A stretch of DNA of 64,000 nucleotides, from positions 23,454-87,453 of the forward strand of contig CAZXAN010000001.1 of assembly GCA_964638585.1 (NCBI GenBank). The letters are read 5' to 3'. The notes below the pieces were generated by a model. The model ran no database searches. It was given only the letters and a program-made list of their open reading frames with translations, and was not told where the DNA came from. Made by a program: the position numbers and the translations under genes. This stretch comes from an uncultured Candidatus Saccharibacteria bacterium. GTDB taxonomy: Bacteria; Patescibacteriota; Minisyncoccia; Phycocordibacterales; Phycocordibacteraceae. Of this stretch, positions 988-56,252 are shown in pieces (within the stretch, counting starts at the first letter, position 1; every line of letters starts with the position of its first letter).

Positions 988-2801
988 ACACAGAACACAT
1001 ACGAAATTTCTCTATAGTTGCGCATGTTGACCACGGTAAATCTACGCTTGCTGACCGGTTACTGGAGCGCACTGGCACTATCCCAGACAGACTTATGCGT
1101 GACCAATTTTTGGACAGAATGGATCTGGAGCGCGAGCGCGGTATCACGATTAAGATGCAACCAGTCCGGATGAAATATAAAGAGTACGTGATGAATCTAA
1201 TAGACACGCCAGGACACATAGACTTTTCATATGAAGTTTCGCGTGCATTAAAAGCAGTTGAGGGGGTGCTTTTGCTCGTTGACTCTACACAAGGTGTTCA
1301 GGCGCAGACTCTGACGACTCTCGGCGCAGCAAGGGCTGCAAATTGCACTATCATCCCTGTCGTCTCAAAGATAGATTCTCCCGCAGCGAGAGTTCATGAG
1401 GTGAGCGCGGAGCTGGCAAAACTTTTAAAAGTATCTGTAGACGATGTGATAGCTGTGTCAGGTAAGACAGGAGAAGGTGTTGAGGAATTGCTAGAGGCAA
1501 TAATTAAGCGTATACCGCCGCCGACAAGGTTAAACCTTGCGAATTCTAAAGGTTTAACCTTGTCGGCGGAGCCACGTGGAATTATTTTTGATTTCTCATA
1601 TTCAACACACAGAGGTATCGCAGTGTACTTGCGCGTCTTAGATGGCACGTTCAAAAAAGGTCAACAATTAAGATTCCATTCGGCTCATAATGAGTTTATT
1701 GCACTAGAAACAGGCATATTTGCCCCAGAAGAAAAGGCTTCAGAAGAGCTGTCTGCAGGCGAAATAGGATACATCGTGACCGGCATCAAAGAGCCAGGTA
1801 TCGTTGGGGTAGGTGACACCATAGGTGCTGTACATGGCAAGCTAGCAGCTCTAGATGGCTATGAGAAGCCTAGACCGGTCGTATGGGCGTCTGTGTATCC
1901 AGAAAATCAAGATGATTTGCCGTTACTAAGAAAATCTCTAGAGAGACTGCGTCTCTCGGATTCTTCACTCTCGTTTGAGGAGGAATCGTCCGGAGTCTTG
2001 GGTAGGGGATTCAGATGTGGTTTTTTGGGCCTTCTGCACCTAGAAATAATCACAGAACGTCTGCGACGCGAATATAGTTTAAAACTGGTTGTCACAATTC
2101 CCACTATTTCATACGTAGTCACTAGAACAAACGGAACGCGAGAAACCATATACACTCCGTCACGGTTTCCAGAGCACGGCGACATAGCGAAGATAGAAGA
2201 GCCGTGGGCTAGAGTCATCATCATCACGCCTCCGTCGGTCGTCAGTTCTCTGATTCAACTTCTCTATGATCACGAGGCAAATACTATGGCAACAGAGTCG
2301 TACCAAGATGGGAGAATAGAGATGACTATAGAGATGCCGCTTCGCGAGCTCATGCGCGGATTCTTTGATAAATTAAAAAACATTTCTTCTGGTTATGCGT
2401 CTCTCTCATATGAGATACTCCCAGAGCGCGAGGCAGATGTAGCGAGACTAGATGTGTTGGTGGCCGAAGAGCCGGTCGCCGCATTTGCGCGCGTGGTCGC
2501 GCGCAGAAGGATAGTAGAAGAGGGAGAAAAAATGGTAGAAAAATTGCACTCAATCCTGCCGAAACAGCTTTTCAATACAAAGATTCAAGCAAAAGTAGAA
2601 GGGAGAATAGTCTCGTCACGTACTCTCTCTGCAATGCGAAAAGACGTTACTGGTTACTTATATGGAGGAGACGTCTCGCGCAAAAACAAGTTGCTTGATA
2701 AACAGAAGCGCGGTAAGAAGAAAATGCTAGAAAGGGGAACGGGTAAAGTAAATATACCCGAAGACGTCTTTATGAAAATGGTGCAGTCTTCTTCAGAGTA
2801 G
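984..2801 (+). CDS. lepA: Translation elongation factor 4 (LepA/EF4)
   Basis: The N-terminus reads NFSIVAHVDHGKSTLADRLL, a G1 P-loop, followed by DTPGHIDF. A full EF-G-like domain order is present and the length is about 600 aa. Confidence 0.95.
   Translation: MNTEHIRNFSIVAHVDHGKSTLADRLLERTGTIPDRLMRDQFLDRMDLERERGITIKMQPVRMKYKEYVMNLIDTPGHIDFSYEVSRALKAVEGVLLLVDSTQGVQAQTLTTLGAARAANCTIIPVVSKIDSPAARVHEVSAELAKLLKVSVDDVIAVSGKTGEGVEELLEAIIKRIPPPTRLNLANSKGLTLSAEPRGIIFDFSYSTHRGIAVYLRVLDGTFKKGQQLRFHSAHNEFIALETGIFAPEEKASEELSAGEIGYIVTGIKEPGIVGVGDTIGAVHGKLAALDGYEKPRPVVWASVYPENQDDLPLLRKSLERLRLSDSSLSFEEESSGVLGRGFRCGFLGLLHLEIITERLRREYSLKLVVTIPTISYVVTRTNGTRETIYTPSRFPEHGDIAKIEEPWARVIIITPPSVVSSLIQLLYDHEANTMATESYQDGRIEMTIEMPLRELMRGFFDKLKNISSGYASLSYEILPEREADVARLDVLVAEEPVAAFARVVARRRIVEEGEKMVEKLHSILPKQLFNTKIQAKVEGRIVSSRTLSAMRKDVTGYLYGGDVSRKNKLLDKQKRGKKKMLERGTGKVNIPEDVFMKMVQSSSE
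1518..1569. repeat. Perfect inverted repeat inside lepA CDS (21-bp arms ccgccgacaaggttaaacctt, 10-nt spacer containing GAATTC)
   Basis: Read directly: arms 1518-1538 and 1549-1569 are exact reverse complements. The repeat encodes an extra segment (TRLNLANSKGLTLSAEP) between the G domain and domain II, relative to canonical LepA. Confidence 0.8.
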
Positions 2802-4312: not shown

Positions 4313-4666
4313 ATGCGCGGGAGACAATTAAGACAGGGATTACTGATAGGGTTTTTGTTGCTCGTCGCAGGCTGGCTGATCTCGCTTATCTGGGGGCTCT
4401 CTGGCAAGGTACAAATAGCTGTCCAAGAGGCTCATAATGCAGAGAGGCAATATAAGGCGCTTGAGGAGCGCAAAGCGGTTCTGCAGGCGAATATTGCCGC
4501 GCTCGCGACTGAGCGAGGGCAGGATGCCGCCATTCGCACCGCTTTCGGGGTCGCGCGCCCCGGAGAAGAGGTTATCGTAGTTGTGCCACCAGAGCCTTCC
4601 ACTACGACACAGTCTCTTTCTTGGTGGCAGAAGATATTGAGTTGGTTCCCAGCCAAAAGCCCATAG
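4313..4666 (+). CDS. ftsB: Septum formation initiator (FtsB/DivIC-like)
   Basis: 117 aa with an N-terminal TM, a coiled-coil segment (QEAHNAERQYKALEERKAVLQANIAAL) and a short Pro/Thr-rich tail. This is the typical FtsB/DivIC architecture. Confidence 0.5.
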   Translation: MRGRQLRQGLLIGFLLLVAGWLISLIWGLSGKVQIAVQEAHNAERQYKALEERKAVLQANIAALATERGQDAAIRTAFGVARPGEEVIVVVPPEPSTTTQSLSWWQKILSWFPAKSP

Positions 4667-4718
4667 GGCATTTAGGCGGGCCCGCCCCAATGGCGCAACG
4701 CCTTTGGGCTGGGTTAAT

Positions 4719-4789
4719 GCGGAATTGGTTTAGTGGTAGAACAGATGCTTCCCAAGCATCGGGCGGGAGTTCGATTCTCCCATTCCGCA
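4719..4789 (+). tRNA. tRNA-Gly(CCC)
   Basis: Cloverleaf read by hand: acceptor GCGGAAT/ATTCCGC, D-arm GTTTAGTGGTAGAAC, anticodon stem GATGC/GCATC with loop TTCCCAA, T-arm GGGAGTTCGATTCTCCC. CCA is not encoded. Confidence 0.85.
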
Positions 4790-28274: not shown

Positions 28275-29501
28275 TTACGAAGTGAGTGATCGATTCCCGT
28301 CTGCTTTAAATTCTGTAGAGAACTCGCCTCTGAGTGCTCGGTAGTAGCCGGCCAGCGCAATCATGATGGCATTATCGGTAGTCAAACTAGGAGCAGGAAG
28401 CAGGAGGCGGCAAGCAGGGAATGAAGACGCCATTTCACGAGTAAAGACTCGGCGTATGTGAGTGTTCGCTGAGACCCCGCCGCCAATAACAAGCGTTTGC
28501 GCGCCAGTCTCTTCAAGCGCCTGCGCCGTCTTCTTCCACAGCACATCTGCAACCGCGTTTTCAAATTCGTGCGCTAGATGCTGTTTTTCTTCATCACTCA
28601 AATCTGGTTTATCTTTCAATAAATACAACACTGCTGTTTTCAGCCCCGCAAACGAGAAGTCGCACGTGCCCGAATCTATCATCGGCCTCGGCAATGTGAA
28701 GGGTTTCGTAAATCCTTCATCTAATGAAGGATTTACGAAACCCTTCATGAGAAGTGATTCGGACAGTTTAGAAAGTTCGGGGCCGCCAGGGTAGGGGAGG
28801 CCGAGCATGCGCGCGACCTTGTCATAGGCTTCGCCGACTGCATCGTCGCGCGTCTGACCTATGAGCTCATATTTCAACCATTCTTTCATTAGCACTAGTT
28901 CTGTGTGGCCACCAGAAATGAGAAGCGCAAGCACGGGCAATTTTATATCTTTGATTTTGAGCTCGTCGTCGCTGCCCGCCGAAGGCGGGGCGACATGATT
29001 TCGGCTTGCTAATGCCGAAATCACATGTCCTTCCATATGATTCACCGCCACCAGAGGCTTGTCCCAGACGAGCGCAAGAGCTTTCGCGAAGTTGATGCCC
29101 ACCCATAGCGCAGGTTCTAGACCTGGACCTGCTGTTACGGCTATCGCGTCTATTTCGGGCGGCTCGCATTCAGAAACGAATTCAAAAAAGACTTCTACGA
29201 GGCCGGGCTCACGCGCCAAAATTTCTGAAATTTTGGCGCGTGATTCTTCTGGTATCGCCTGAGCATCTTCATGCAGAAGTTCTGCCTCTTCGAGCGCTGC
29301 TTCCAGAATTGGTACAAGATTCTTCGCGTGCTCGCGCTTCGCGAGAGCAGGGAAGACCCCGCCGTATTCTTTATGAACTTCTATCTGCGAAATAAGTGCA
29401 TTCCCGAGCACAGAGAATGTTGCACTGGACTGGTCTCCACTGCATTCAAGAATCGCAATCGCCGTTTCATCACAACTTGTCTCAATGGCTAGGATTTTCA
29501 T
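28275..29501 (-). CDS. tsaD: tRNA N6-adenosine threonylcarbamoyltransferase
   Basis: MKILAIETSCDETAIAIL.. and a Kae1/TsaD fold throughout, plus the HMEGH metal site. The track ORF extends a further 57 codons upstream; start placed at the canonical MKIL. Confidence 0.9.
   Translation of the reverse strand: MKILAIETSCDETAIAILECSGDQSSATFSVLGNALISQIEVHKEYGGVFPALAKREHAKNLVPILEAALEEAELLHEDAQAIPEESRAKISEILAREPGLVEVFFEFVSECEPPEIDAIAVTAGPGLEPALWVGINFAKALALVWDKPLVAVNHMEGHVISALASRNHVAPPSAGSDDELKIKDIKLPVLALLISGGHTELVLMKEWLKYELIGQTRDDAVGEAYDKVARMLGLPYPGGPELSKLSESLLMKGFVNPSLDEGFTKPFTLPRPMIDSGTCDFSFAGLKTAVLYLLKDKPDLSDEEKQHLAHEFENAVADVLWKKTAQALEETGAQTLVIGGGVSANTHIRRVFTREMASSFPACRLLLPAPSLTTDNAIMIALAGYYRALRGEFSTEFKADGNRSLTS
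28697..28747. repeat. Perfect inverted repeat inside tsaD CDS (24-bp arms tgaagggtttcgtaaatccttcat, 3-nt spacer cta)
   Basis: Arms 28697-28720 and 28724-28747 are exact reverse complements, 51 bp and in frame. The repeat encodes about 17 extra residues (..MKGFVNPSLDEGFTKPF..) in a loop that is short in canonical TsaD. Confidence 0.85.
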
Positions 29502-40238: not shown

Positions 40239-40611
40239 ATTTAGTTACGAGCTTTTGTTCGCATTTATTCATCTTAACACCATGCACCCACCCTTTTATA
40301 TGCAATGCGCCGTGGATAAATAAATAGAGGCAGTAGGCGCTAGGCGTTAGGCCATAGGCAGGGGCTTGTTTCTTTGCTTCGCTAGGACAGATAATAATCT
40401 CGCAATTTTTGTCGCCGACTACATAAGACAGTACATTCGGCACATAAGACTTCTTACGCAACTTCTTATTTAAGGACAATGCTTTAGCTGGGCCTACAAA
40501 AACGAGCGAGACCTCCCAGTCGGGTAGCAGTTCTTTTGCAATTTTAGAAAATGCCAAACGCGATTTGCCGTAGGCAAATCGCGTCTCATTATTTATAGAA
40601 ACGCCCGGCAT
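40162..40611 (-). CDS. ybeY: Endoribonuclease YbeY (overlaps ftsA start by about 77 nt)
   Basis: NVLSYVVGD..IIICPSEA.. and the zinc motif HGALHIKGWVH (H3xH5xH). Confidence 0.65.
   Translation of the reverse strand: MPGVSINNETRFAYGKSRLAFSKIAKELLPDWEVSLVFVGPAKALSLNKKLRKKSYVPNVLSYVVGDKNCEIIICPSEAKKQAPAYGLTPSAYCLYLFIHGALHIKGWVHGVKMNKCEQKLVTKYGTENNHRHRHRDVPSKNGRSRRGV
40328..40364. repeat. Four tandem TAGGC heptads (GCAGTAGGCGCTAGGCGTTAGGCCATAGGCAG) inside the ybeY coding region
   Basis: 7-nt periodicity read directly. On the coding (minus) strand the region encodes AYGLTPSAYCLY in YbeY. Confidence 0.6.
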
Positions 40612-43752: not shown

Positions 43753-43849
43753 GCAGGCATTGTACGCGTATGTTTGTAGAGCGCAAGCCCAGCACCAAAT
43801 TTTTTAGAAAAAAGTTGGTGCTGGATGAATTTTTTGCTATGATAAGCGT

Positions 43850-44733: not shown

Positions 44734-44849
44734 CGAGTTTTGAGGATATCAGATGTCCACAAAACTACTCAAAAAAGCCTGATTGGTGCTTGATTTCAAT
44801 ATCGTCGCGCTCATAACGCCCAAGAATCACATCTCTTGAGAATTCTTTA

Positions 44850-45663
44850 GTGAGGGACGTCTAACGTCCCTCACTCGAAGGACCCGGTGCTGTGTAGTGC
44901 AGAGTCGTCAGGTATATTGCGGCCGAGAATCACGTCTCGGGCGTACTCGCGGTAATCATCTGGACTGTAAAGCGATGTAAGGAACTTCTTGTCGACAATT
45001 GGCCGATTGAAAGTTCCAACATAATCACCTAGGCTCGAATACGGATATGCACTCGCCCAGGCATAGGCTTCGTTAAAGTTACTCCGCGCCCAATTGTAGC
45101 CCTTAGGGTGAACATCGAATGCGTTTTTCACTTGGATGTACGCCGATACGTATCGGAAATAATTGTCATCGTCCACAGTTCGCGCACAATATGAACCTTG
45201 GAAGAGGGATCCTTTTTCACAATAGCGTTCGTTAAATTTCTTTGCCATCCCGGTGCCTAGACGATGCATAAAGCGTACGACACCACCTTCCTTGATTTCC
45301 TGGAGCAGAAGGTGAAAGTGATTCTCGACGAGTCCAAAAGCGACTAGTCCAACATGTGAATCACGTTCTGGCCAATGAGGTGGCCGCTCGAAGGTTCGGT
45401 GAACGTGAGCGTCATATAAATCGCGATGCCAATTTGGAGAAGTGAAGCTGTCGTTGAAGTGAGTCAGCATCAGCAAGAATCTGAATCGATCTGCCTCATC
45501 ACGAACGATAGGTAATCCTCGCGTTCCTCGTTGAACGACGTGAACGTACGACCCAATGCTGAACGGCTCCTTCCGCATACACCAATCATACACGACCTGA
45601 GGGACGTTAGACGTCCCTCAAATGTCCTTGTGTGCATAAGTGAGGGACGCTAAGCGTCCCTCA
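44850..45663. mobile_element. REP-RAYT unit: IS200-like tyrosine transposase flanked by three REP palindromes
   Basis: GAGGGACG-N5-CGTCCCTC at 44850-44874 overlaps the RAYT stop. GAGGGACG-N5-CGTCCCTC at 45598-45620 lies 5 nt upstream of the start. GAGGGACGC-N3-GCGTCCCTC sits at 45641-45663. Confidence 0.7.
44871..45593 (-). CDS. REP-associated tyrosine transposase (RAYT; IS200/Y1-transposase-like)
   Basis: YVHVVQRGTRG..FLLMLTH.. and the HUH motif ENHFHLLLQE, then FMHRLGTGMAKKFNERYCEKGSLFQGSYCAR (catalytic Tyr region) and WARSNFN..SSL. Collinear with PF01797-type RAYTs. Confidence 0.75.
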   Translation of the reverse strand: MYDWCMRKEPFSIGSYVHVVQRGTRGLPIVRDEADRFRFLLMLTHFNDSFTSPNWHRDLYDAHVHRTFERPPHWPERDSHVGLVAFGLVENHFHLLLQEIKEGGVVRFMHRLGTGMAKKFNERYCEKGSLFQGSYCARTVDDDNYFRYVSAYIQVKNAFDVHPKGYNWARSNFNEAYAWASAYPYSSLGDYVGTFNRPIVDKKFLTSLYSPDDYREYARDVILGRNIPDDSALHSTGSFE

Positions 45664-46024
45664 GGAAAAAGTATTGAAGCCGCGACCCAGTTTGCCAACA
45701 CGCGATAGTCTTCAAATTGAAAGCCCCGCGACAAAAGTTCATCGCGGGGCGGCATCACATATTTCGTCACATTTGTAAGTAATTTCACGACGATCTGGCC
45801 GACGACCAAGACAGAATCACCGTGCAGACATGAAAGACGTTCGACCGTTGCTTTAGCCACGACAAACAATGCGGCAAGCAATCCGGTGTTCTTCATACCC
45901 ACAAATCTGTCAGTATCCTAGCGCACATGGTTGTTTTTGTCAAGGTATCCCCGCAAACTGAGAGACAGCACGACCTCCCGCTGGGGAGGTCGATGCGTGT
46001 TCCGATATTGCACTTGCCGGAGCG

Positions 46025-47816: not shown

Positions 47817-48521
47817 GTGTCGCAGGGGATAACATTTTGTGCTACAATATACGCAATGGTTATCACGCATCACGGGGGTCAATGTATCAAGGTTACCTTC
47901 GGCGATTTGACGCTCGTCTTTGATCCTATCTCTAAAAGTGGCACTCTGCCCGCAGTGCGATTCGGCGCCGATATCGCCCTAGTCTCGCGCGACCATCCCG
48001 ATATGAATGGCGTTGACGAAGTGACTTACGGCGACAAAAAGCCTTTTGTTGTGAACGGCCCCGGCGAGTACGAGAGAGGAGGCGTAGTGATACAAGGATT
48101 CCTCTCACACAGTGCGTACAACTTGGCGGCGAAACACCCAAGCAACTTGGGTGTTTCGCCGCCAAGTTTCGTGAATACTATATATAGTGTGCAACTTGAG
48201 GATATGACTCTAGTGCATCTCGGTGCATTGTCTGACACTGAACTGTCACAAGAGGCGCGCGAGAGCATTGACGAGATAGATGTATTGTTTGTGCCGATTG
48301 GTGGTGAAGGTGTTCTATCTGCTTCAAAGGCGCACGAACTCGCGGTGTCGCTAGAGCCAAAGATAATAGTACCTATACATTGGCAAGGAGTGGGTGCGCC
48401 GAAATCTCTTGAAGCATTTCTTAAAGAGGCTGGTAATGGGAATGAAAAAGTTGATAAGCTCACACTTAAGAAAAAGGATTTGACGACTCTTGAAGGGAGT
48501 ATAATGGTTATAACTCAATAA
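47817..48521 (+). CDS. MBL-fold metallo-hydrolase (UPF0173-like)
   Basis: MVITHHGGQCIKVTFGDLTLVFDP.. and later DVLFVPIGG, consistent with Lactamase_B_3. The start may be the internal Met at 47856. Confidence 0.55.
   Translation: MSQGITFCATIYAMVITHHGGQCIKVTFGDLTLVFDPISKSGTLPAVRFGADIALVSRDHPDMNGVDEVTYGDKKPFVVNGPGEYERGGVVIQGFLSHSAYNLAAKHPSNLGVSPPSFVNTIYSVQLEDMTLVHLGALSDTELSQEARESIDEIDVLFVPIGGEGVLSASKAHELAVSLEPKIIVPIHWQGVGAPKSLEAFLKEAGNGNEKVDKLTLKKKDLTTLEGSIMVITQ
48121..48167. repeat. Perfect inverted repeat inside the MBL-hydrolase CDS (22-bp arms acttggcggcgaaacacccaag, 3-nt spacer caa)
   Basis: Arms 48121-48142 and 48146-48167 are exact reverse complements. The repeat encodes NLAAKHPSNLGVSPPS in frame. 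Confidence 0.85.
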
Positions 48522-56176: not shown

Positions 56177-56252
56177 ATCCAGCACCTAGTTTTGTTGCAA
56201 AACTAGGTGCTGGATAAAAAAAGGCCACCGCAAGCGGTGGCCTTTGAGTTTG
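56177..56252. terminator. Bidirectional terminator region: an 18-bp perfect palindrome with 3-nt loop (56177-56215), then a GC hairpin ggccaccgc-aa-gcggtggcc plus T-tract
   Basis: atccagcacctagttttg / caaaactaggtgctggat are exact reverse complements. The second hairpin at 56223-56242 is followed by tttgagtttg on the plus strand and has a T-run on the minus strand. The region sits between the convergent pilin-like operon and the 56261 gene. Confidence 0.6.

Follow-up and report, generated by a model that had tools for sequence, protein, structure and literature searches.

The locus examined here raises the question of how a perfect palindrome came to lie, in frame and translated, within a gene for an MBL-fold hydrolase, and of what kind of element it is. 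In the following, the window denotes the whole stretch of DNA analysed (64 kb), and related loci are designated by L numbers. The features concerned, with geometries written as arm/loop/arm in nucleotides, are:

47856-48521, plus strand: host gene for an MBL-fold hydrolase (Pfam Lactamase_B_3), 221 aa
48120-48168, plus strand: whole element, a perfect 23/3/23 palindrome translated as NLAAKHPSNLGVSPPSF, with homologous same-site copies in L081, L082, L083, L084/86, L161 and L162
48120-48142, plus strand: left arm, a 'gaa-type' unit ACTTGGCGGC-gaa-ACACCCAAG encoding NLAAKHPS
48143-48145, plus strand: loop CAA, 3 nt
48146-48168, plus strand: right arm, a 'ttc-type' unit CTTGGGTGT-ttc-GCCGCCAAGT encoding NLGVSPPS

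A palindrome of two hairpin units in the MBL-fold gene

The first-pass annotation had described a perfect 22/3/22 palindrome at 48121-48167. Its arms, ACTTGGCGGCGAAACACCCAAG (48121-48142) and CTTGGGTGTTTCGCCGCCAAGT (48146-48167), are indeed exact reverse complements around the loop CAA, but this description fell one A:T pair short, as pairing of 48120 with 48168 lengthens the stem to 23/3/23. Position 48120 is a first codon position of the CDS, and the palindrome is translated in frame as NLAAKHPSNLGVSPPS(F), as had been claimed. By direct calculation (64000 x 7 x 4^-23), the number of perfect hairpins expected in 64 kb with a 23-bp stem and a loop no longer than 6 nt is roughly 6e-9. The window had 16 perfect hairpins of 10 bp or more in the stem, versus 0.3 in first-order Markov shuffles; a chance origin was therefore rejected. 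The predicted folding energies were -47.9 kcal/mol as RNA (z = -8.95) and -31.1 kcal/mol as DNA (z = -8.83). Inverted chimeras occur in amplified DNA, but an artefact of assembly or amplification (for instance, a chimeric fold-back read) has next to no likelihood here, since the identical MBL-fold protein was present on 5 contigs from several sources, homologous palindromes with their own compensated variants were found in independent metagenomes and MAGs (L081, L082, L084/L086, L161 and L162), and the element was in frame in every case. An intrinsic transcription terminator was dismissed because the hairpin lies in the middle of the ORF and is followed by TTTCGTG, with no run of four or more T; genuine terminator-like hairpins in these loci are bordered by A and T runs. 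An integron attC-like reading fitted neither the geometry nor the position.

The building block of the element is a hairpin of 23 nt (10/3/10; stem 10 bp, loop 3 nt), in which the stem base ACTTGG/CCAAGT is conserved and the apex is variable. Each arm represents one degraded 23-nt unit, so that the element is a head-to-head dimer and, owing to this arrangement, folds as one 23-bp hairpin. The right arm is homologous to the single hairpin ACTTGGGGGTttcACCCCCAAGT of L001/L088/L085, and its variable positions are mostly third codon positions, so that the peptide NLGVSPPS is conserved. The variable stem positions correspond to second codon positions in the left arm, the peptide of which differs among lineages. 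In L082 and L162, the first base of the loop is T, by which the loop shrinks to 1 nt.

Six of the seven dimers found at this site were perfect and yet unlike in sequence, the remaining one (L083) being decayed and asymmetric with a diverged peptide. A comparison of orthologs, suggested by the first-pass annotation, turned up none that encodes the same peptide by non-symmetric DNA, L083 being the sole asymmetric copy. When the copies were compared in the long-hairpin fold, 96.9% of the cells paired and 6 pairs (12 cells) had changed on both sides; none of 500 shuffles matched the observed paired cells, double changes or covariation score, and the alternative fold into two small hairpins gave only 84% paired cells. 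Both arms thus change together, so that complementarity is kept as the sequence drifts. The perfect copies (n = 6) contained Watson-Crick pairs only, with no G:U intermediates, which suggests a constraint at the DNA level over one at the RNA level.

In the protein, the element falls in a loop between the predicted strands E76-84 and E104-112, with the insert forming residues 82-106 at low confidence (pLDDT <50). Among 142 distinct ortholog loop sequences, 112 had the insert-free short form YGLAKGQEEAVNT, 7 had the doubled palindrome at the same site, and 3 had a single 23-nt hairpin, ACTTGGGGGT-ttc/gaa-ACCCCCAAGT, the ttc form occurring in L001/L088 and L085 and the loop-flipped gaa form in L163/L164. 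The loop also hosts at least three other insert families (PTSPKATQG.., ATERERGSTEASRPN.. and QAKTSKAGSPDAEASRE), and the reading frame was kept in all insert variants. Relative to insert-free alleles, the element substitutes some host codons instead of being a clean insertion, and only its left junction varies among lineages. Alleles with and without the element stand side by side in very close relatives. Outside a patch of roughly 120 nt around the insert, L081 and L095 share about 99-100% identity; they differ in insert state, as do the pairs L162/L094 and L082/L110. The mostly synonymous differences in the L081/L095 patch mark it as a recombination tract, for which no closer donor was found among the loci compared. 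The element is translated and tolerated in a poorly ordered surface loop, and a host function need not be invoked.

Dispersed copies and other hairpin families

Copies of the element are spread over unrelated genes and intergenic DNA of related Kaiserbacteria/Paceibacteria genomes. Repeats ending in ACTTGG...CCAAGT were located within genes (MBL, tsaD and that of an oxidoreductase) as well as between genes, in keeping with the shared cttgg/ccaag ends that the first-pass annotation had anticipated; the window itself has one such locus only. The ends can be written as (TC)ACTTGG...CCAAGT(GA/T), the 5′ flanking TC being present in about half of the copies, and they lack a GTAG or CGTC terminal tag. 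A 23-mer identical to that of the single MBL hairpin lies in another frame in tsaD of L165, where it is read as ELGGFTPKF, and a related copy is present in tsaD of L166; xLGGxTxKF-type peptides occur at this site in about 24 of 120 tsaD orthologs. The L165 palindrome runs 9 bp into host codons, including those for the conserved LP of LPRP, and this extension of the stem points to a local templated process instead of transposition. Three intergenic units lie within 6.6 kb in L022. In L291, the MBL gene and a Pyr_redox_2 (thioredoxin-reductase-like) gene have an identical stretch of 51 nt that contains a 47-nt dimer. 

The flanks of these two L291 copies are unrelated, and the two identical dimers lie in 20.7 kb; they are read in different frames, as HLEVKHPSNLGVSPPS in one gene and SLGGETPKQLGCFTSKL in the other, and the orthologs of the Pyr_redox_2 gene in L168 and in the window are without the dimer. 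No target-site duplication was found at the two L291 copies, the flanks of which share only ATC (5′) and T (3′), and a MITE, that is, a miniature transposon bounded by terminal inverted repeats, was set aside as direct duplication is missing there. The ACTTGG element is thus dispersed and recently copied, not merely a tolerated local insertion. That related ultra-small (CPR) bacteria have this repeat in further genes and also outside genes indicates that it behaves like a tiny selfish mobile element residing in protein loops.

A DNA-uptake-sequence-like motif was discarded, since ACTTGG and CCAAGT show no over-representation: 770 kb held 156 and 96 occurrences, respectively, where a random hexamer would be expected about 188 times. 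When viral contigs were scanned with the 14-base pattern CACTTGG-N11-CCAAGTG, 120 matches were obtained, of which one was perfect; pairing of the inner 4 bp was near chance, and there was no sign of a phage reservoir. A search of the concatenated element-encoded peptides against a protein database returned no candidates, and it was uninformative because known positives were missed too.

Hairpins of the same design but of other sequence are found elsewhere in the window:

1518-1569, plus strand: imperfect (92%) dimer-type palindrome in lepA, after IPPP
28697-28747, minus strand: second dimer (24/3/24), lying in frame in tsaD and composed of TGAAGGGTTT-cgt-AAATCCTTCA units; its site is a hypervariable loop that precedes LPRPM
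44849-44875, no strand assigned: hairpin AGTGAGGGACGT-cta-ACGTCCCTCACT with a 10/3/10 core inside, flanking the 3′ end of the Y1 gene
44874-45617, minus strand: IS200/IS605-type Y1 (HUH) transposase-like gene, 2.2 kb upstream, a putative trans-acting enzyme
45596-45665, no strand assigned: two more TGAGGGACG hairpins, at 45598-45620 and at 45641-45663, bordering the Y1 gene at its 5′ end
cta-loop form of the hairpin: TGAGGGACGT-cta-ACGTCCCTCA

The tsaD dimer, to which the first-pass annotation had ascribed the same geometry and a different sequence, is built as the MBL element is (10/3/10, dimerised) and belongs to a different family (TGAAGG../TGAGGG..) with a resemblance to the hairpins that border the Y1 transposase gene. 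At the same tsaD site, L168, L169 and L170 have perfect but different dimers; at the lepA site, L170 has a perfect 26/1/26 palindrome and L168 has no insert. Other 10/3/10 families occupy tsaD, lepA, a methyltransferase gene and a tRNA synthetase gene, the first three with perfect dimers. Two ATGTTGGACGT-acc/ggt-ACGTCCAACAT units, of a non-ACTTGG family, lie in two genes of L170 (21 kb), and TCCGCCGGAGGCGGA dimers lie in two genes of L291. A further palindrome in tsaD (29209-29243) covers the conserved peptide RAKISEILAR; in 6 of 7 genomes it is perfect, the synonymous changes being compensated. The proposal that there is a family of hairpin insertions tolerated within ORFs was thus borne out by the dispersed copies, the low-confidence loop and the insert-free majority of MBL orthologs.

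The Y1 transposase gene and the relation to known repeats

The Y1 protein matched Pfam Y1_Tnp with 37.9 bits (cut-off 23) and the NCBIfam model for REP-associated tyrosine transposases (REP_Tyr_transpos) with 17 bits, far below the cut-off of 80; an HUH motif (NHFHLLL) and a tyrosine region (YxxxYIQxxN) were read from its sequence, and a PDB sequence search gave no match. Syntenic homologs with 65-87% identity, as in a resident gene, were present in L072, L001, L161 and L106. Genome-specific hairpins flank every Y1_Tnp homolog found. In the window, the loop of the 5′ hairpin at 45598-45620 is flipped relative to the 3′ copy, and loops are mutually flipped in all Y1 genes with hairpins on both sides (window, L001 and L029). 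The base TGAGGGA..TCCCTCA of the flanking hairpins in the window recurs in in-ORF dimers in tsaD and lepA of L170. The flanks of the Y1 genes of the window, L072, L001, L029, L161, L106 and L292 were TGAGGGACG, TGTGGACGCC, GAAGTCnGACTTC and AGTAAAGAGGT, and never ACTTGG; only the TGAGGGACG family was therefore seen around a cognate gene, and the ACTTGG hairpin as the cognate repeat of the adjacent Y1 transposase is unsupported, all Y1 genes found carrying other hairpin families.

Among described systems, REP elements and REPINs, which are REP doublets forming hairpins, with their RAYT transposases (Bertels & Rainey 2011, PMC3116915; Di Nocera et al. 2013, PMC3733652), share several properties with the present repeats: a short hairpin unit of 20-40 nt (here 23 nt, 10/3/10), head-to-head dimers that fold as one long hairpin or two small ones, and compensatory changes across the hairpin, which are common in REPINs (PMC3116915) and amount here to 6 pairs (12 cells). 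A single-copy, syntenic Y1 transposase gene flanked by hairpins is a further likeness, and from other phyla there are reports of REPs and dimers that lie within genes and are translated (PMC3733652). However, GTAG or CGTC tags, as defined in PMC3733652, are absent here, the units are 1-3 nt apart whereas the REPIN spacer measures tens of bases, conservation lies at the base of the stem and variability at the apex, the copies seen are mostly intragenic, and the ACTTGG family was not found beside a Y1 gene. REP/REPIN systems number tens to hundreds of dispersed copies per genome; the stretches covered here held one ACTTGG locus (window), two identical dimers (L291) and three units (L022). The Y1 protein itself is RAYT-like in its synteny across genomes and lies far under the RAYT model cut-off. 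IS200/IS605 elements, which move by single-strand 'peel and paste', likewise combine a Y1 HUH transposase with subterminal hairpins at both gene ends; in contrast, the Y1 gene here is syntenic, the MBL element is gene-less, and no specific target tetranucleotide has been established for it.

Rickettsia palindromic elements (RPEs) are about 100-150 bp long, whereas the element described here measures 23-51 nt and is set apart by this length. Like RPEs, which are selfish palindromic repeats discussed in PMC3733652 and PMC6649704, it lies in frame in unrelated housekeeping genes and is translated in differing frames, the same repeat having been found in the MBL and Pyr_redox_2 genes of L291 and, as the 23-mer, in the MBL gene and tsaD. 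RPEs lose repeat identity over time (PMC6649704), whereas the arms of the MBL element stay perfect across lineages. In this respect it recalls the coding palindromes of Nematomorpha mitochondrial genes, perfect inverted repeats in translated genes whose identity is binary (perfect or lost) and whose gain and loss are dynamic, which were taken to be parasitic and to be subject to an active mechanism of conversion, possibly by template switching (Mikhailov et al. 2019, PMC6649704). The MBL palindrome too is perfect in a translated gene while diverging, with six perfect copies and the decayed L083 reproducing the binary pattern. However, the repeats of Nematomorpha are up to 284 bp long, lie over conserved regions of proteins and were not described as dispersed copies of one sequence, whereas the MBL element is short, lies in a variable loop and belongs to a dispersed family; the RAKISEILAR palindrome in tsaD of the window is the closer analogue. 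Template-switch (quasi-palindrome) mutation according to the Ripley model (Monttinen & Loytynoja 2022, PMC8794818) resembles the present case in creating or repairing a perfect stem in one event, in multi-base compensatory changes, in loop flips and in stem extension, but it is a local mutation that does not disperse identical copies to other genes, and is best seen as a step in maintenance or growth, not as the identity of the element.

Taken together, the palindrome probably represents a non-autonomous miniature element built of hairpin repeats, of the REP/REPIN or RPE type. As regards the mobilising enzyme and the mechanism that keeps the arms perfect, we infer a scheme in which copying would proceed via single-stranded hairpin DNA, the likely enzyme being an IS200/IS605-family Y1 (HUH) transposase, such as the upstream one flanked by hairpins of the same geometry. 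Spread between lineages would occur by homologous recombination of the surrounding patch. The perfect arms may be maintained by a DNA-level process, for which template switching, hairpin-templated correction and replacement by sister copies are candidates, and only hairpin-competent copies would propagate.

Origin of the palindrome and its implications

The palindrome might instead have arisen purely locally, by a template switch or quasi-palindrome correction that copied the NLGVSPPS segment in reverse complement, with repeated switching keeping the arms perfect and no mobility involved. The perfect arms and compensated changes fit this account, as do the loop flipped in the single hairpin of L163, the extension of the L165 tsaD palindrome into conserved host codons and the compensated RAKISEILAR palindrome; variation confined to the left junction would be expected if one arm were re-synthesised from the other, and the mechanism is documented (PMC8794818; for coding palindromes, PMC6649704). 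Nevertheless, a local origin cannot account for identical copies that lie in different genes between unrelated flanks, as do the 51-nt stretch of L291 and the 23-mer that tsaD has in common with the MBL gene. Nor can it account for the presence of three intergenic copies in L022, or for the repeats that each occupy two genes in L170 and in L291. As the sole explanation it is largely refuted by these copies and appears unlikely, and local template switching probably contributes to maintenance and growth of the palindrome while being insufficient as its origin.

Selection by the host for a functional nucleic-acid structure, for example an mRNA hairpin acting in RNase III cleavage or translational pausing, or a cruciform or protein-binding site in the DNA through which the MBL gene is regulated, would agree with the very stable RNA hairpin, the strong covariation and the conservation of the RAKISEILAR palindrome across tsaD orthologs. 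Classically, RNase III acts on perfect duplexes of about 22 bp. This explanation is nonetheless quite unlikely, given that the structure is absent from 112 of 142 orthologs, differs in presence between very close relatives, recurs in unrelated genes and in intergenic DNA, and has six perfect copies with Watson-Crick pairs only, devoid of G:U intermediates; with Rfam 15 at the gathering score, only 7 tRNAs were detected across the window and nothing at 48120-48168. It is very improbable that the palindromic DNA is incidental to selection for new peptides in a hypervariable, possibly diversifying surface loop. The further insert families in this loop, and the contrast between the conserved NLGVSPPS of arm 2 and the variable peptide of arm 1, would suit such selection, but peptide selection does not yield perfect reverse-complement DNA in six lineages, the same DNA gives unrelated peptides in other frames of other genes, and the intergenic copies are untranslated.

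On the reading of the palindrome as a mobile hairpin repeat, a broader proposal may be put forward, tentatively and with less than even confidence: that CPR bacteria (Kaiserbacteria/Paceibacteria) harbour an undescribed class of minimal hairpin replicators, built of 23-nt units and head-to-head dimers, which reside mainly in coding genes in any frame, move between genes and, by recombination, between species, and have their palindromy actively restored at the DNA level. Within the literature searched, no account of REP-type or palindromic coding insertions in Patescibacteria/CPR was found. If the proposal is true, the same restoring process would turn conserved coding sequence into perfect palindromes, as over RAKISEILAR in tsaD, these bacteria would provide a counterpart to the unexplained coding palindromes of Nematomorpha mitochondria, and the phenomenon may be linked to domesticated Y1 HUH transposases and a reduced DNA-repair repertoire.

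The same-site perfect copies with drifting sequence offer a tractable case for studying the upkeep of palindromes, be it by template switching, inter-copy conversion or selection for transposition competence, and the hairpin repeats also offer a case in which mobilisation by Y1 transposases can be tested. Such repeats can serve as strain-level markers, and they can mislead alignments, gene trees and structure prediction. For the biology of these organisms, the finding means that very compact CPR genomes still carry selfish hairpin repeats, which, with little intergenic space, settle in loops of essential housekeeping proteins (MBL hydrolase, TsaD, LepA, methyltransferase and tRNA synthetase) and account for some of the variation in length and some of the lineage-specific insertions that had been unexplained in CPR proteins.

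A translated hairpin dimer in the MBL-fold hydrolase gene

In this CPR bacterium of the Parcubacteria/Kaiserbacteria type (names as in the sources), positions 48120-48168 of the window read AACTTGGCGGCGAAACACCCAAG-caa-CTTGGGTGTTTCGCCGCCAAGTT, a perfect 23/3/23 palindrome (arm/loop/arm) within an MBL-fold hydrolase gene (Pfam Lactamase_B_3, CDS 47856-48521). The first-pass annotation had described a perfect in-frame 22/3/22 palindrome; this was confirmed, each side being 1 bp longer than claimed, and the element, which begins on the first base of a codon, gives the peptide NLAAKHPSNLGVSPPSF on translation. The expected count of a perfect 23-bp hairpin in 64 kb was about 6e-9, and the window holds 16 perfect hairpins whose stem is 10 bp or longer, versus 0.3 in Markov shuffles. 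Predicted folding energies were -47.9 kcal/mol (RNA) and -31.1 kcal/mol (DNA), with z about -8.9 for both. Since five contigs carry an identical MBL protein and homologous palindromes are present in independent assemblies, an artefact was ruled out.

Comparison with related CPR genomes (loci and contigs with L-numbers) revealed that L001/L088 and L085 have one small hairpin of 23-25 nt at this site, (A)ACTTGGGGGT-ttc-ACCCCCAAGT(T), which encodes (H/N)LGVSPPS, and that L163/L164 have its loop-flipped -gaa- form, which encodes NLGVKPPS. The two arms of the large palindrome are each a unit of this kind, the left of the gaa type and the right of the ttc type, and therefore the element is a head-to-head dimer. 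In the dimers the small hairpins are partly decayed and the long hairpin is still perfect.

Perfect dimers at the MBL site (left arm; loop; stem)
Window: AACTTGGCGGCGAAACACCCAAG; caa; 23 bp
L081: AACTTGGCGGTGAAACCCCCAAG; caa; 23 bp
L162: AAACTTGGCGGCGAAACCCCCAAGT; a; 25 bp
L161: ACTTGGAGGCGAAACCCCCAAG; caa; 22 bp
L084/L086: ACTTGGAGGTGAAACACCCAAG; caa; 22 bp
L082: ACTTGGGAGTGAAACACCCAAGT; a; 23 bp

A seventh dimer, in L083, is decayed, with 19 of 23 pairs left. Alignment of the seven showed 96.9% of cells paired in the long hairpin and six pairs (12 cells) changed on both sides; these values were reached by 0 of 500 shuffles, and slid controls gave none. The alternative fold into two small hairpins gave 84% pairing only. 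The six perfect dimers contain Watson-Crick pairs only, with three of their four variable positions at third codon positions in arm 2 and second positions in arm 1; the arm 2 peptide NLGVSPPS is conserved and that of arm 1 is variable.

Distribution among orthologs and dispersal to other genes

The loop between QGFLS and NTIY was compared in 164 orthologous loci (L001-L164), giving 142 distinct sequences, among which 112 had the short form YGLAKGQEEAVNT without hairpin, seven a doubled palindrome, three a single small hairpin and 20 other inserts; the reading frame was kept in all. In the AlphaFold model, whose confidence is modest (pLDDT 63), the insert (residues 82-106, pLDDT <50) lies between strands E76-84 and E104-112, so that the site is predicted to be a connecting loop. 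When the loop was masked, a neighbour-joining tree of the gene showed the alleles with an insert to be scattered, each beside insert-free relatives. L081 and L095 are about 99-100% identical outside a patch of about 120 nt around the insert; the differences within the patch are mostly synonymous, and it marks a tract of recombination through which the element was gained or lost. A donor of the patch was sought and none was identified. Insert state also differs in the pairs L162/L094 and L082/L110 (94-96% identity).

It was also noticed that the loop holds other recurrent insert families, ATERERGSTEASRPN.., PTSP(Q)KATxG.. and QAKTSKAGSPDAEASRE, scattered on the gene tree (L003, L097, L133, L141; L025, L089, L101, L107, L114, L122 and others). 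None forms a perfect hairpin now, and at least the PTSPKATQG type resembles a decayed one (CCTACTTCGCC-aaa-GGCTACGCAGG). A second indel-prone loop follows VTYGD (PSSPSGRG in L081/L095, PSNKLRPG in L001/L088, AKRDGKEQT in L162), with no clear hairpin in the two inserts read.

Copies of the unit, with its ACTTGG/CCAAGT stem base, were located elsewhere. The tsaD gene of L165 contains the exact 23-mer ACTTGGGGGTTTCACCCCCAAGT, read in another frame as ELGGFTPKF, and that of L166 a related copy, ACTTGGGGG-cgaaa-CCCCCAAGT; xLGGxTxKF-type peptides occupy that loop in about 24 of 120 orthologs. L291, which is the contig of L086, has an identical 51-nt stretch including the 47-nt dimer in two of its genes, with unrelated flanks, and the orthologs in L168 and the window are without this insert. 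Three intergenic copies in L022 adjoin terminator hairpins.

Dispersed copies in L291 and L022
L291 10278-10324: dimer in the MBL gene, translated as HLEVKHPSNLGVSPPS
L291 1266-1312: dimer in a thioredoxin-reductase-like Pyr_redox_2 gene, translated as SLGGETPKQLGCFTSKL
L022 intergenic copy 1: TCACTTGGCGGTC-c-GACCGCCAAGTGA
L022 intergenic copy 2: ACTTGGAGGC-gag-GCCTCCAAGT
L022 intergenic copy 3: ACTTGGAAGC-ttc-GCTTCCAAGT

We regard these copies as the decisive evidence for a dispersed repeat. The proposal of a family of hairpin insertions tolerated within ORFs is supported, and the comparison extends it: a hairpin repeat of 23 nt is dispersed among these genomes, and the feature in the MBL gene is a head-to-head dimer of it that is translated. 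It is rather probable that the feature is a mobile element. Nothing observed requires a host function: most orthologs are without the element, close relatives differ in it, and copies reside in unrelated genes and intergenic DNA. A role of the hairpin in the mRNA, for example as an RNase III or pause site, seems quite improbable; an Rfam search gave no match for the element.

Other hairpin families and a Y1 transposase-like gene

Other hairpin families showed the same behaviour. The tsaD loop before LPRPM has perfect dimers in the window, L168, L169 and L170, different in sequence in each, and the lepA loop after IPPP, which is without insert in L168, holds an imperfect dimer in the window and a 26/1/26 one in L170. 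One methyltransferase loop contains perfect dimers in L167 and hairpins in L170, where ATGTTGGACGT-acc/ggt-ACGTCCAACAT is present in methyltransferase and tRNA synthetase genes. Dimers of TCCGCCGGAGGCGGA (peptide SAGGGSASGG) are present in two L291 genes.

Dimer of TCCGCCGGAGGCGGA followed by TCCGCCTCCGGCGGA (15/0/15)
L291: 6992-7021 and 7887-7916
L070: 2543-2572
L021: 1352-1379

The two L291 copies are identical and lie in an HGTP_anticodon-domain gene and pth, and the dimer is found in other genomes too. The window lepA palindrome has the ends CCGCCG../..CGGCGG. Intergenic hairpins at window 43789-43824 and 56177-56215 and L049 685-711 have CCAGCAC(C)/(G)GTGCTGG as their common stem base and differ in their apical stems, and look like a further family whose base is conserved and whose apex varies; the 56177 hairpin directly precedes a terminator-like hairpin (56220-56245). 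The ybeY ORF (40558-40584, minus strand) contains a perfect 12/3/12 hairpin, ACGCGATTTGCC-gta-GGCAAATCGCGT, and directly upstream of a tRNA gene (4719-4789) there is an imperfect 36-nt palindrome (75% complementary; 4648-4713). Most long perfect non-terminator-like hairpins of all loci and the window (837 kb) have a loop of 1 or 3 nt; where the stem is 17 bp or longer, nine have loop 1 and 12 have loop 3, versus two with loop 0 or 2. The junction ..ATC-n-GAT.., read TSDVG or SSD(D/E)G, is common to dimers of several families.

Transposase-like gene near the MBL element
44874-45617, minus strand: IS200/IS605-type Y1 (HUH) transposase-like gene, 2.2 kb upstream

Its product scored 37.9 bits with Pfam Y1_Tnp and 17 bits with the NCBIfam RAYT model (cut-off 80), and a PDB sequence search gave no match. 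Three copies of TGAGGGACG(T)-nnn-(A)CGTCCCTCA, with the 10/3/10 geometry of the MBL unit, flank the gene (44849-45665). The gene is syntenic in several genomes, and homologs in L072, L001, L029, L124, L161 and L106 each have a genome-specific flanking hairpin, with loops flipped where copies lie on both sides; by analogy, this arrangement resembles REPtrons. In L170, the dimers within the tsaD and lepA ORFs have the TGAGGGA..TCCCTCA base of these flanking hairpins of the window. L292 has two TGTGGACGCC hairpins around a 540-nt gap without a called Y1 gene, and another Y1 gene elsewhere. No Y1 gene found in the window and related loci was flanked by ACTTGG hairpins, and we therefore only infer a link of the ACTTGG element to a Y1 enzyme; mobilisation by such a transposase is possible but somewhat doubtful, less likely than mobility itself.

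Maintenance of the arms and relation to known elements

In L165 tsaD, the palindrome (19/3/19) reaches 9 bp past the unit into host codons, including the conserved LP of LPRP. A second tsaD palindrome was located in the window:
29209-29243, minus strand: perfect 17/1/17 palindrome, TCACGCGCCAAAATTTC-t-GAAATTTTGGCGCGTGA, encoding SRAKISEILARE

In contrast to the other palindromes, this one is no insert, and it covers RAKISEILAR, a peptide that almost all of the 120 orthologs have kept. At the DNA level, six of the seven genomes examined have a perfect palindrome of 14-17 bp here, in which synonymous changes are compensated (L166 and L170: AAA/TTT to AAG/CTT, L170 also with the centre ATTGC-g-GCAAT; L169: CGCGC/GCGCG to CGTGC/GCACG). 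The segment is part of a clade-specific TsaD extension.

The L165 extension and the RAKISEILAR palindrome point to upkeep of the arms by a local templated DNA process. Template-switch correction, which matches both observations (PMC8794818), would restore perfect arms, and as the maintenance mechanism it is conceivable at somewhat less than even chance. Alternatively, arms may be replaced by sister copies, or only hairpin-competent copies may propagate, as proposed for REPINs (PMC3116915); the three are not mutually exclusive. Coding palindromes of Nematomorpha are described as 'binary', either perfect or lost (PMC6649704), and the pattern here matches this.

The closest known systems are REP/REPIN-RAYT, for which intragenic REPs have been reported (PMC3116915, PMC3733652), Rickettsia palindromic elements (RPEs) and the Nematomorpha coding palindromes (PMC6649704). 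Traits in common with these are the hairpin unit, its head-to-head dimer, arms that change in a correlated way, location in frame within unrelated genes, and Y1 genes flanked by hairpins. However, the MBL element has a conserved stem base and variable apex; it differs from REP/REPIN in having no GTAG or CGTC tags, units only 1-3 nt apart and a cognate transposase that is a candidate only, and it is much shorter than RPEs. Because of these differences, filing it as REPIN or RPE was rejected. A viral-contig scan for the element gave chance-level results, a peptide-based database search gave no match and missed known positives too, and no description of such elements in Patescibacteria was found in the literature searched. 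The MBL element is described as a new variant of the REPIN/RPE-like kind in CPR bacteria.
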